Positions 39,630 through 45,188 of a stretch of DNA of 64,000 nt are shown one piece after another. Location of the stretch: the NCBI GenBank assembly GCA_963704725.1, contig OY969934.1:1408001-1472000 (forward strand), in the 5' to 3' direction. The DNA comes from an uncultured Actinomycetes bacterium (GTDB lineage: Bacteria; Actinomycetota; UBA4738; HRBIN12). The translations under genes were made by a program, and so were the position numbers. The stretch's first letter is position 1. Every line of letters starts with the position of its first letter. The notes under the pieces were generated by a model. It did no database searches and was not told where the DNA came from. It saw only the letters and a list, made by a program, of their open reading frames with translations.

Positions 39630-41674
39630 GCCCGGCCCGCTCCTCCGGCGGCCGGGCCACAGCCGAGCGCCAGCTCGCCGAGGGGAAGGTCCGCGTGGAA
39701 GAGCTGCGTGAGCGGCTCAACTACCACTCGTACCGCTACCACGTGCTCGACGACCCCGAGGTCTCCGACGCCGAGTACGACGACCTGATGAACGAGCTCC
39801 GGGCGCTCGAGGAGCGGTTCCCGGAGCTCGTCACCCCCGACAGCCCCACGCAGCGCGTGGGCGCCACGCCGGCCGACCTGTTCGCGCCGGTGCCGCACCG
39901 CTCGCCGATGCTCTCGCTGGACAACGCGTTCGCCCGGGAAGAGCTCGAGGCGTGGGCGGCGCGCGTCGAGCGGGCCGAGGGGGCCGGGGCCCGCTACTCC
40001 TGCGAGCTGAAGATCGACGGCGTGGCGGTGGCGCTCACGTACGAGCGCGGCGTCCTGACCAAGGGAGCCACCCGCGGGGACGGCCGCATCGGCGAGGACA
40101 TCACCGCCAACGTCCGCACGGTCCGCACCGTCCCCCAGCGCCTGACGGTGGCGGACCCACCCGAGTACCTCGAGGTGCGCGGGGAGATCTACCTCCCGGT
40201 GAAGGCGTTCGAGAAGCTGAACGACCAGCTCCTGGACGCCGGCGCCCGCCCGTTCGCCAACCCGCGCAACGCCGCGGCGGGATCGCTTCGCCAGAAGGAC
40301 CCCAAAGTGAGCGCGTCGCGACCGCTGTCCCTGTGGGTGCACTCCTTCGGCTTCGCCGCGGGCGTGCGATTCGACTCCCATTCCGGGTTCCTGCAGTGGT
40401 GCCGGGACGCGCGCCTGCCCGTGGCCCCGACGTCCCGGGTCGAGGACGACCTCGAGGGCGTCGAGCGGTACCTCCAGCACTGGGAGGCCAACCGCCACAG
40501 CGTCGACTGGGAGATCGACGGCACCGTGATCAAGGTGGACCAGATCGCGCTCCAGCAGGAGCTCGGCGCGACCTCGCACGCGCCCCGGTGGGCGATCGCG
40601 TACAAGTTCCCGCCCGAGGAGCGCACGACCGTGCTCCGCGGCATCGACGTCCACACGGGGCGGACCGGTATCGTCACGCCCTTCGCGGTGCTCGAACCGG
40701 TCCACGTGAGCGGCGTGACGATTACCACCGCCACCCTGCACAACGAGGACGAGGTCGCCCGCAAGGACGTCCGCCCCGGCGACACCGTGATCGTCCGCCG
40801 CGCCGGGGACGTGATCCCCGAGGTGGTCGGGCCGGTGCTCTCGAAGCGGAAGAAGGGGTCCCGGCGGTGGCGGTTCCCGGCGACCTGCCCCTCGTGCGGG
40901 ACGGCGCTCGTCCGCGGGGAGGGCGAGGCCTACCGCCGGTGCCCGAACCGGCGAGACTGCCCCTCGCAGAACATCGAGTGGCTGTTCAGCTTCGCCTCGC
41001 GGGGAGGGATGGACATCGAGGGCCTGGGCTACAAGACCGGCATCCAGCTCCTGGACCGCGGCCTGGTGAAGGACCCAGGCGACATCTTCTCGCTCGGCGC
41101 GGAGGATCTCGCGCAGCTCGAGGGGTTCGCCGACCGCTCGATCACCAACCTGCTCGCCTCGATCGAGGCGGCCAAGGATCAGCCCCTGTGGCGCCTCCTC
41201 GTCGCGCTCAACATCCCGCACGTCGGCACGCACGTGGCCCAGGTGCTGGCGCGAGCGTTCGGCTCGGCGGAGGCGCTGTCGGAGGTCACCGCGGATCGGA
41301 TCGACGACGTTCCGGAGATCGGACCGGAGATCGCCCGGAGCGTGCACGAGTGGTTCCAGGACCCGCTGAACCTGGCGCTGCTCGACAAGCTGCGGGTGGC
41401 CGGCGTGCGGACCGCGGACCCGGTCGAGACCCGAGAGGGGCCGCTCCCGCTCGAGGGTAGGACGGTCGTGCTGACGGGAGGGTTCGAAGAGCTGTCGCGC
41501 GAGGAGGCGACGGCGGCGGTGCAGGCGGCCGGGGGGCGCGTGGCCTCGAGCGTCTCCAAGAAGACGGACTTCGTGGTCGCTGGAGAGAACCCGGGCTCCA
41601 AGCTCGCGAAGGCGCAGGAGCAGGGAGTCGAGGTCATCGACGAGCAGGAGCTCGTGCGGAGGCTGGGTCGATGA
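39626..41674 (+). CDS. ligA: NAD-dependent DNA ligase
   Basis: ELKIDG, Zn finger CPSC..C..C, HhH repeats, C-terminal BRCT. Confidence 0.98.
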
Positions 41675-43665: not shown

Positions 43666-45188
43666 GCGAGGTGCGCGCCTCCGACCGCGAGATCGTCGCC
43701 GTCCGGAACCTGCTGCGATCGATGTCCTCGGGACGCCAGGCGTTCGCGCTCTACCCGGCCGGGCACCCCAAGCGGGTAGAGGCGTCTCGGGCGTTGCTCG
43801 ACCTCGTCCGCAAGCTCCGCGAGGAGCGCGCCGGGGACCCCGTCCTGTTCGCGACCGACGGCAACTTCTACCTCGGGCCGACGCTGCTGGCGTGGGAGAC
43901 CCTCACGCTGTACGGGCTCGCCCACGCCTTCGCCGAGGCCGGCGTCCAATCGCTCGAGTTCCTGCCGGGTCCCGGCGAGGCCGACATGGACGCCCTGTTC
44001 CGGCTCCTGTCCGGGGAGCCGGACGCGCGGGCGGAGCTGCACACGGTGAGCGTGAACCGGGCGGGTCCCGCGGCGGCCGAGCCCTCCGTCGAGGCCACGA
44101 TGACGGAGTTGCTGCAGAGCTACGCGGCCGGCCTGGACCTGCTGCGGCAGACGGCGGCCCGGGTGCTCGCCGGGCGCCCGGCCGACATGGACGCGACGGT
44201 CCGCTTGACCGAGCACATCGCCGACCTCATCGCCTCCGATCCCGGACAGGCCCTGCTGCTGACGACGGTGAAGTCGTACGACGAGTACACGTACCACCAC
44301 ATGGTCAACGTGTGCATCCTCTCGCTGGCCCTGGCCCGGGCCATCGGGCTCTCGCGCGAGCACGCGATCGCGCTCGGCATCGGCGGGCTGCTGCACGACG
44401 TCGGCAAGGTCAAGGTCCCGGCCGACATCCTCCAGCACGACGGCGCGCTGGACGAGGAGCAGTGGCGGATCATCCAGCGCCATCCGGTCGACGGCGCCGG
44501 ACTGGTGCTGATCACCAGCCGCAACGCCTACCACCCGGCGGTTGCCACCGTGCTCGAGCACCACGCTGCGTACGACGGCTCGGGGTATCCGACCCTGTCG
44601 GGACGGCGCTCGCCGTCGCTGCCCGCGCGGATCGTCGCCGTGGCCGACTGCTTCGACGCCGTGACGAGCAAGCGCTCCTACCGTAAGCCGGAGGAGCGCC
44701 GCCAGGCGCTCAGCCTGCTGCAGGCCGGCGCGGGGCGGTCGTTCGACCCGCGGGTGGTCCGCACGTTCGTCCGGATGGTGGGGATCTTCCCGGTCGGGTC
44801 GCTCGTCCGCCTGTCGAGCGGCGAGGTGGCGGTCGTGGTGCGCAACCACGAGCGTCTCCTGGCCCGGCCCATCGTCCAGCTCGTGCTGGACCGGGAGGGC
44901 CGCGAGGTCCGGGGCGAAGAGGCCGACCTCGCCGAGACGAACGAGGCCGGCGCGTTCCTTCGGACCGTGATCCGCAGCGTCGATCCCGTCGAGGTCGGCA
45001 TCGACATGCTCTCCCTCCTCGCGTCGAACCGCTTCGACATCCCGCCGCCGGAGGACACCGGGCCGGGGCTGGTCCACGAGCCGGCGCCGACCGAGACCCC
45101 GCCCGACGGCTACGTCGAGGCCCACGGGGTCGCGCACCTCGACGACCTGCCGATCGATCCCGACGCGGGCCCGGCGCCACAGGAGTGA
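43662..45188 (+). CDS. HD-GYP domain protein (putative cyclic dinucleotide phosphodiesterase)
   Basis: DEYTYHH, LHDVGK, HP..G, HH..DGSGYP, ADCFDAVTSKRSYR, FDP. Confidence 0.9.
   Translation: MSEVRASDREIVAVRNLLRSMSSGRQAFALYPAGHPKRVEASRALLDLVRKLREERAGDPVLFATDGNFYLGPTLLAWETLTLYGLAHAFAEAGVQSLEFLPGPGEADMDALFRLLSGEPDARAELHTVSVNRAGPAAAEPSVEATMTELLQSYAAGLDLLRQTAARVLAGRPADMDATVRLTEHIADLIASDPGQALLLTTVKSYDEYTYHHMVNVCILSLALARAIGLSREHAIALGIGGLLHDVGKVKVPADILQHDGALDEEQWRIIQRHPVDGAGLVLITSRNAYHPAVATVLEHHAAYDGSGYPTLSGRRSPSLPARIVAVADCFDAVTSKRSYRKPEERRQALSLLQAGAGRSFDPRVVRTFVRMVGIFPVGSLVRLSSGEVAVVVRNHERLLARPIVQLVLDREGREVRGEEADLAETNEAGAFLRTVIRSVDPVEVGIDMLSLLASNRFDIPPPEDTGPGLVHEPAPTETPPDGYVEAHGVAHLDDLPIDPDAGPAPQE

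Follow-up and report, generated by a model that had tools for sequence, protein, structure and literature searches.

HD-GYP proteins are the less studied class of cyclic di-GMP (c-di-GMP) phosphodiesterases, and outside the forms linked to REC and GAF domains their regulation and targeting are largely unknown. In overall architecture, the closest described systems are members of the Bd1817 family (DUF3391-HD-GYP; structure 3TM8), which includes PA4108, VC2497 and B. burgdorferi BB_0374. These proteins carry one uncharacterised cytoplasmic N-terminal domain of ~120-140 amino acids (aa), which a helix joins to a C-terminal HD-GYP domain, and have no REC, PAS, GAF or membrane part. In the catalytic domain, the closest relatives are PmGH (GAF-HD-GYP, 4MCW) and PA4781 (REC-HD-GYP, 4R8Z). 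There is also precedent for HD-GYP proteins that form part of protein complexes, for example RpfG (with GGDEF proteins) and HnoD (with HnoB). However, as far as described, the partners of RpfG and HnoD are other c-di-GMP enzymes; their genes do not overlap the HD-GYP gene from upstream, and they lack an N-terminal domain in common with the HD-GYP protein. Here, a gene pair is described from a 64,000-nucleotide stretch (the window) of contig OY969934.1 from an uncultured Actinomycetes bacterium, in which a gene for a HEAT-repeat protein (P0001) overlaps the start of a gene for an HD-GYP protein (P0002). P0002 resembles the Bd1817 family in its general layout, but DUF3391 proteins have been described without a partner gene bearing the same domain, whereas P0001 and P0002 both open with one ~130-residue domain, termed N-dom below. 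The HD-GYP enzyme family is known; what is new is the combination of the N-dom, the partner gene and an EHH-type active-site loop.

The original prediction for this locus, made from the sequence alone, held that the two proteins begin with alignable, homologous segments, and this proved correct. The N-terminal motifs that it quoted are present in P0001 (residues 22-41 and 112-125) and in P0002 (AVRNLLRSMSSGRQAFALYP at 13-32 and PGEADMDALFRLLS at 103-116), and direct comparison of residues 22-160 of P0001 with residues 13-140 of P0002 by BLASTP gave 28% identity over 141 columns (E 0.001). Separate alignments of the N-termini were built with orthologues from 20 genomes of the same class (A1, HEAT-type, n = 21; A2, HD-type, n = 21). 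When compared by hhalign, these matched over 125 columns (96%, E 4.7e-9, score 57.5). The homology covers the first ~130 residues of the two proteins. In control comparisons, reversing the columns gave E 0.47, 20 column shuffles reached E 0.034 at best (best score 18.2), and of three further 150-column blocks from the HEAT protein the best reached E 0.065. One result runs counter to this: queried with the HD-type N-terminus alone, the own genome did not yield the HEAT N-terminus at E<=10, although this query picked up the HEAT N-terminus upstream in genomes G044 (E 4.4e-4) and G147 (E 0.008). In addition, the AlphaFold2 (AF2) models of both N-doms show the same order of helices (H) and strands (E), H-H-E-E-E-H-E-H-H(-E), in which two long helices precede a beta-hairpin and one more strand, after which come a helix, a strand and two helices. 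The two N-termini are homologous copies of one alpha/beta domain.

The two genes are also neighbours elsewhere: 38 of the 42 loci examined have the HEAT gene immediately upstream of its HD-GYP partner. At class level, 20 loci were drawn from 31 other genomes with a strong match (excluding three genomes of the own genus, four within-genus duplicates, three matches at contig ends and genome G006), and in all 20 the two genes share a strand, with the HEAT gene directly 5' of the HD-GYP gene. Eleven of these pairs sit between ligA and gatC; for the other nine, the 8 kb retrieved contain neither of these flanking genes. Across a wider sample of the phylum, the N-dom was found in 49 of 401 genomes, of which at least 39 have the adjacent pair. 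In 23 of the 49 (21 of 47 when the unpublished genomes G006 and G449 are left out), two N-doms occur on one strand at a distance of ~2 kb. Of the 26 genomes in which the N-dom match was single or unpaired, 20 were inspected and scored with local profiles, revealing the full pair in 16 and the HEAT-type gene alone in four. Similarly, both of the loci from named actinobacterial metagenome-assembled genomes that were found via a distant representative (P0157) contain the pair. In the window, for which translational coupling had been put forward, stop and start overlap in an ATGA; an NTGA overlap recurs in 29 of the 38 pairs, and most of the others show TAATG, TGATG or a gap of about 20 nucleotides. 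No third gene was common to all loci when the flanking open reading frames (ORFs) of 40 loci were clustered all against all. Taken together, the strict adjacency in changing neighbourhoods, the overlap of start and stop and the one rare domain heading both proteins suggest that the two subunits are made together, and the two genes probably act as one signalling unit.

The N-dom, which had been presented as unnamed, is indeed absent from the libraries searched (Pfam, NCBIfam, PDB sequences and PDB folds). At E<=10, Pfam gave a consistent match in none of 42 N-doms (21 HEAT-type and 21 HD-type), with scattered single matches among the HEAT-type copies, and an NCBIfam scan of P0001 and P0002 added nothing specific. 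The joint N-dom profile had no match among PDB sequences (best E 0.14), Foldseek searches of the PDB with the two N-dom models gave nothing above noise (best E 0.35 and 0.31), and VIA-align of the HD-type model against 48,161 representative chains returned helical hairpins only (best Z 4.8). The top fold matches, comprising the GAF region of PelD (E 0.35), a periplasmic sensor domain (E 0.31) and the hairpins (Z<=4.8), were rejected as unspecific, and the best scores in the ESM Atlas (0.77-0.78) were all below the level reached by shuffled proteins.

Identity of the N-dom with DUF3391 was considered and rejected, as PF11871 matched none of the 42 N-doms at E<=10. DUF3391 is described in the available part of a preprint by Galperin and Chou as four beta-strands followed by two long helices; relative to that description the order in the N-dom model is reversed, with the two long helices preceding the strands. 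An ESM Atlas entry named DUF3391 scored 0.77, which is under the noise level of the tool, and no 3TM8 chain appeared among the Foldseek or VIA-align matches listed. The HD-GYP-associated domains named in the same preprint (bioRxiv, 2021), in the part available, are DUF3391, DUF3369 and MASE9-12, and this preprint, the main survey of HD-GYP architectures, contains the word HEAT 0 times and mentions no HEAT partner. A full-text literature search for HD-GYP together with HEAT repeats yielded no account of such a pair, as judged by title, and in a wider HEAT and armadillo search none of the 15 papers listed of 527 held HD-GYP. The names of these proteins in public records are all generic ('HD-GYP domain-containing protein'). 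Given the lack of matches in these library, fold and literature searches, the N-dom is taken to be uncatalogued and undescribed within what was searched.

Other recognisable domains are few in either protein. The sole Pfam match in P0001 is HEAT_2 (residues 538-623), which is also matched by most of its full-length relatives, and the sole match in P0002 is HD_5/HD (208-365). REC, PAS and GAF domains and transmembrane helices, which had been stated to be lacking, were not found in either protein: no Pfam match to these domains was present at E<=1, and the highest 19-residue Kyte-Doolittle means were 1.43 (P0001) and 1.54 (P0002), where 1.6 is the usual level for a transmembrane helix. P0001 resembles bacterial HEAT_2 and PBS-lyase HEAT-like proteins such as NblB in its C-terminal ~90 residues, though the NblB match (E 0.0011) is far below the cut-off. 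It differs from NblB-type proteins in that it reaches no lyase family and carries, in addition, the N-dom and a middle part of ~350 aa without an assigned family.

The catalytic domain of P0002 (residues 203-376) matches PmGH (4MCW, E 1.1e-23), PA4781 (4R8Z, E 1.7e-23), V-cGAP3 (5Z7C, E 3.9e-20) and Bd1817 (3TM8, E 1e-8) in phmmer searches. In PmGH, according to the part of the structural account available (Bellini et al., PMC4159591), the metal ligands are H189, H221, D222, H250, H276, H277 and D305, the catalytic pair is D183 and K225, and the substrate contacts are Y285, R314 and K317, of which the latter two contact guanine. The corresponding residues of P0002 are H213, H245, D246, H274, H300, H301 and D329 (metal ligands), D207 and K249 (catalytic pair) and Y309, R338 and R341 (substrate contacts), all of which are invariant in 20 orthologues, and PmGH D308 has an identical or conservative counterpart that is invariant as well. 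The GYP motif (G308-Y309-P310) is likewise invariant in the 20 orthologues and occurs as G[YF]P in 36 of 36 HD-GYP partners. P0002 is therefore like PmGH and PA4781 in its catalytic domain, metal ligands, D/K pair, GYP tyrosine and R314/K317 contacts, but unlike them in having EHHA instead of HHE, a different N-terminal domain and a conserved C-terminal extension of ~130 aa. It also departs from PmGH in having a tyrosine opposite E185, a third-metal ligand that marks the trinuclear subgroup and not the HD-GYP family; this tyrosine groups P0002 with the binuclear enzymes, to which PA4781 belongs according to the available part of the preprint. The own genome contains 13 GGDEF matches, so that c-di-GMP is made in the host, and four loci with HD_5 domains. 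On the strength of these residue assignments, P0002 is probably an active binuclear-type cyclic-dinucleotide phosphodiesterase, for which c-di-GMP would most likely be the substrate. The C-terminal extension includes FPVGSLV..., and in most phylum-level partners the local HD-GYP profile aligns almost to the C-terminus.

Conservation within the N-dom differs between its two types. The positions kept in both are an L-Y-P turn that joins helices 1 and 2, together with two leucines, while other positions are specific to one paralogue: H35 (97%) and E79 (89%) in the HD-type (n = 36), and a GG pair in the HEAT-type, where a histidine occupies the H35-equivalent position in 38% of 39 sequences. The common positions appear hydrophobic or structural and do not evidently point to a shared ligand pocket, which favours diverged copies that pack together over copies that share a pocket. 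When 75 N-doms (39 HEAT-type and 36 HD-type) were placed on a maximum-likelihood (ML) tree, one branch split the two types (1 change, SH-aLRT 74), and none of 500 label shuffles was as low as 1 change. As the two types fall on opposite sides of one branch, the duplication of the N-dom is likely older than the sampled lineages. A candidate third copy in the own genome (G000:C1:1795121-1795402, E 0.049) was rejected, being antisense to NuoF-like and formate-dehydrogenase-like genes.

A joint profile of 30 N-doms of both types (A3), searched against 1.84 billion representatives clustered at 50% identity, recovered 1953 proteins at E<=1e-3, 152 at <=1e-10 and 18 at <=1e-30. Pfam scans of 134 of the 149 listed matches other than P0025 showed that the full-length matches combine the N-dom either with HEAT_2 (about 560-690 aa) or with HD_5/HD (about 400-515 aa). 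Every match to which Pfam assigned a domain was of one of these types, bar one CHAT/TPR protein (P0152) that was matched in short repeats and is probably spurious. The remaining scanned matches had no Pfam match, and some of these were full-length while the short ones were fragments. Five proteins of ~294-350 aa (P0119, P0127, P0133, P0135 and P0155), from five independent 50%-identity clusters, consist of two tandem N-doms. Each half fits the HEAT-type profile better than the HD-type one, and all five end at roughly one position beyond the second copy. These tandem proteins fit two N-doms packing on each other. Homologue searches with P0169 and with alignment A5 named only 'Actinomycetota/Actinobacteria bacterium' as taxa, and a tblastn search of plasmids with the HD-type N-dom found no match. 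Among less usual forms, P0190 (1079 aa) has an HD domain (242-449) followed by an N-dom (503-616) and ~460 residues without an assigned family, and may be a reverse-order fusion or a gene-calling artefact. P0176 (856 aa) is a longer HEAT-type form with two N-doms and a weak HEAT_2 match, and P0191 is also a longer HEAT-type form.

The N-dom sits before the helical linker, in the place where other HD-GYP enzymes bear a regulatory or dimerising domain. The HEAT-repeat protein would be a non-catalytic subunit made in step with the enzyme through translational coupling. The two N-doms would pair as a pseudo-homodimer and so tether the HEAT solenoid to the enzyme, which the solenoid would then gate or bring to a target. 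Gene order and translational coupling suggest that the HEAT protein controls the phosphodiesterase, and a heteromer formed by the two N-doms, with the solenoid gating or targeting the enzyme, has about an even chance of being the correct description, its binding, substrate and direction of control all being deduced. The role first suggested for the shared domain, hetero-dimerisation or ligand sensing, is supported in part: the domain and the kept pairing are real, and binding and sensing are putative. A stronger version is possible but decidedly more tentative. Here, the N-dom would be a new family of signalling domain whose paralogous copies build an obligate two-subunit 'holo-phosphodiesterase', with the EHH loop as a co-evolved signature and the HEAT subunit gating or docking the enzyme. 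If true, the module would represent a widespread and unstudied way to localise c-di-GMP signalling, present in about one in eight genomes of the phylum. In either case, a dedicated partner gene, an uncatalogued shared domain and a family-specific change in the active-site loop define a testable subclass of HD-GYP enzymes, and a profile of the N-dom would improve the annotation of proteins that are now named generically.

Several observations weigh against a dedicated two-protein complex of this kind. The binding of the two proteins is something that we infer, gene adjacency by itself is a weak sign of physical contact, and the tandem proteins hold two copies in one chain, which is no proof that separate chains bind. 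A complex prediction with the full-length HD-GYP protein (A4) and the HEAT N-dom (A1) gave a score of 0.00, was made without controls and counts neither way. In four of the 40 class- and phylum-level loci (L076, L077, L080 and L081), the HEAT-type protein has no adjoining HD-GYP gene and belongs to a longer open frame (793-1242 aa); since only one N-dom was found in those four genomes, the HEAT-type protein can exist alone. The branch that parts the two N-dom clades is modestly supported (SH-aLRT 74) and several rows are long-branched. The active site also departs from the canonical motif, given as HHExh(D/N)GxGYP in the available part of the preprint. The signature in the window, LEHHAAYDGSGYP, lacks HHE, and all 36 partners have E before HH and A, C, S, M, V, L or I after it, never HHE, whereas a paralogue in the same genome retains HHHERFDGTGYP. 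In the phmmer alignment Y209 stands opposite the third-metal ligand E185 of PmGH with E208 one residue earlier, so that a one-residue alignment shift is possible; DEYT is found at this place in 28 of 36 partners. Given the EHH loop and the tyrosine at the E185 position, the activity or substrate of the enzyme could differ from that of the HD-GYP proteins studied to date.

These points bear differently on the alternative explanations. The N-dom might be a sensor through which both proteins read the same cue separately, with c-di-GMP hydrolysis and HEAT-mediated interaction as their respective outputs and no mutual binding. Its location ahead of a helical linker is the usual place for an HD-GYP sensor (as far as the preprint is available), polar residues are strongly conserved in the HD-type (H35 and E79), and a few lineages have the pair bordered by genes for a histidine kinase and an OmpR-type regulator. 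However, what both paralogues keep is limited to L, Y, P and two leucines, the polar residues of the HD-type are not kept in the HEAT-type, so that a pocket in common is not evident, and the almost universal overlap of the genes exceeds what mere co-regulation needs, which leaves a shared sensor unlikely. A similarly low probability attaches to the N-dom serving in each case only to homodimerise or stabilise its own protein, the HEAT protein being a target, effector or localisation factor that contacts the enzyme via its solenoid or not at all. HD-GYP enzymes do work as dimers, DUF3391 has been proposed to promote the dimer (in the available part of the preprint) and the HEAT-type protein occurs without an adjoining HD-GYP gene in the four loci mentioned above, but this explanation leaves the presence of the same rare domain on the partner in 38 of 38 pairs without a reason.

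It is also conceivable, though improbable, and compatible with any of the other readings, that the HD-GYP partner is not a c-di-GMP phosphodiesterase and instead has a different nucleotide as its substrate (3'3'-cGAMP, pGpG or other) or serves mainly as a binding or 'trigger' protein. The EHH loop in place of HHE in 36 of 36 partners and the tyrosine opposite PmGH E185 would agree with this, as would the fact that the third-best PDB relative, V-cGAP3, is specific for cGAMP. Against it stand the invariance of the core metal ligands, the catalytic D/K pair and the R314/K317 equivalents, the c-di-GMP enzymes that are the nearest solved relatives and the number of GGDEF matches in the genome. That the N-terminal likeness itself is due to chance or to composition, both proteins being rich in Ala/Leu/Arg and the genome having ~73% G+C, is scarcely credible. 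The BLASTP E value is no better than 0.001 and the own-genome search with a single sequence missed the HEAT N-terminus, but the profile alignment and its controls refute this explanation: the profile-profile E value compares with 0.034 for the best of 24 controls, the models share their secondary-structure order and the joint profile brings up just these two architectures plus fragments. A putative heteromer of scaffold and phosphodiesterase is the preferred reading; the features of the pair and its neighbours are given in Table 1.

Table 1 Features of the gene pair and its neighbours in the window.
Feature	Position	Strand	Basis and remarks
ligA	39461-41674		ORF as listed; 5' neighbour of HEAT gene
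ATGA overlap, ligA stop / HEAT gene start	41671..41674	+	Sequence; not kept in relatives (gap or folD there)
HEAT-type gene P0001, 664 aa	41671..43665	+	ORF and translation; N-dom, ~350-aa middle without family, C-terminal HEAT repeats
N-dom of HEAT-type protein, residues ~19-150	41725..42120	+	hhalign versus HD-type N-dom; AF2 model pLDDT 92.2
HEAT repeats, residues 538-623	43282..43539	+	PF13646 HEAT_2, E 2.9e-13, 50.3 bits versus cut-off 27.7
ATGA stop/start overlap, HEAT gene to HD-GYP gene	43662..43665	+	Sequence
HD-GYP gene P0002, 508 aa	43662..45188	+	N-dom, helical linker, HD-GYP catalytic domain, conserved C-terminal extension
N-dom of HD-GYP protein, residues ~8-135	43683..44066	+	AF2 model pLDDT 88.5; without a match in Pfam, PDB sequences or PDB folds
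HD-GYP catalytic domain, residues ~203-376	44268..44789	+	PF13487 E 4.9e-24; phmmer to solved HD-GYP structures
C-terminal extension, residues ~377-508	44790..45185	+	Invariant columns up to residue 483 (A4); no Pfam match
gatC, then gatA	45208-45498 (gatC)		3' of HD-GYP gene

The host genome is a single contig of 3.45 Mb. A scan of positions 38800-47200 for promoters and terminators returned 0 and 0 sites, and a search of sequencing runs listed no RNA run and one soil-metagenome DNA run with a share of 0.08 of words. The ligA ORF as listed opens at a GTG within the preceding gene of 224 aa (38955-39629), and as likeness to relatives sets in near residue 66-83, the true ligA start is probably later. 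In some relatives, folD (tetrahydrofolate dehydrogenase/cyclohydrolase) lies between ligA and the HEAT gene (for example L042:1977-2933(+), and also L045-L047), which is not the case in the window. Neighbours are otherwise lineage-specific and include, besides folD, a histidine kinase, an OmpR-type regulator and an alpha/beta hydrolase. The histidine kinase (HisKA and HATPase_c) is just upstream of the HEAT gene in L050, L054, L073 and L074, and the OmpR-type response regulator follows the HD-GYP gene on its downstream side in L051, L070, L072, L073 and L074, with coordinates for such flanking signalling genes of L050:5000-6649(-) and L073:2197-2922(-). Finally, one genome carries five N-dom matches within a single region (G405:C1:1504283-1515190), including two divergently oriented pairs about 6 kb apart.

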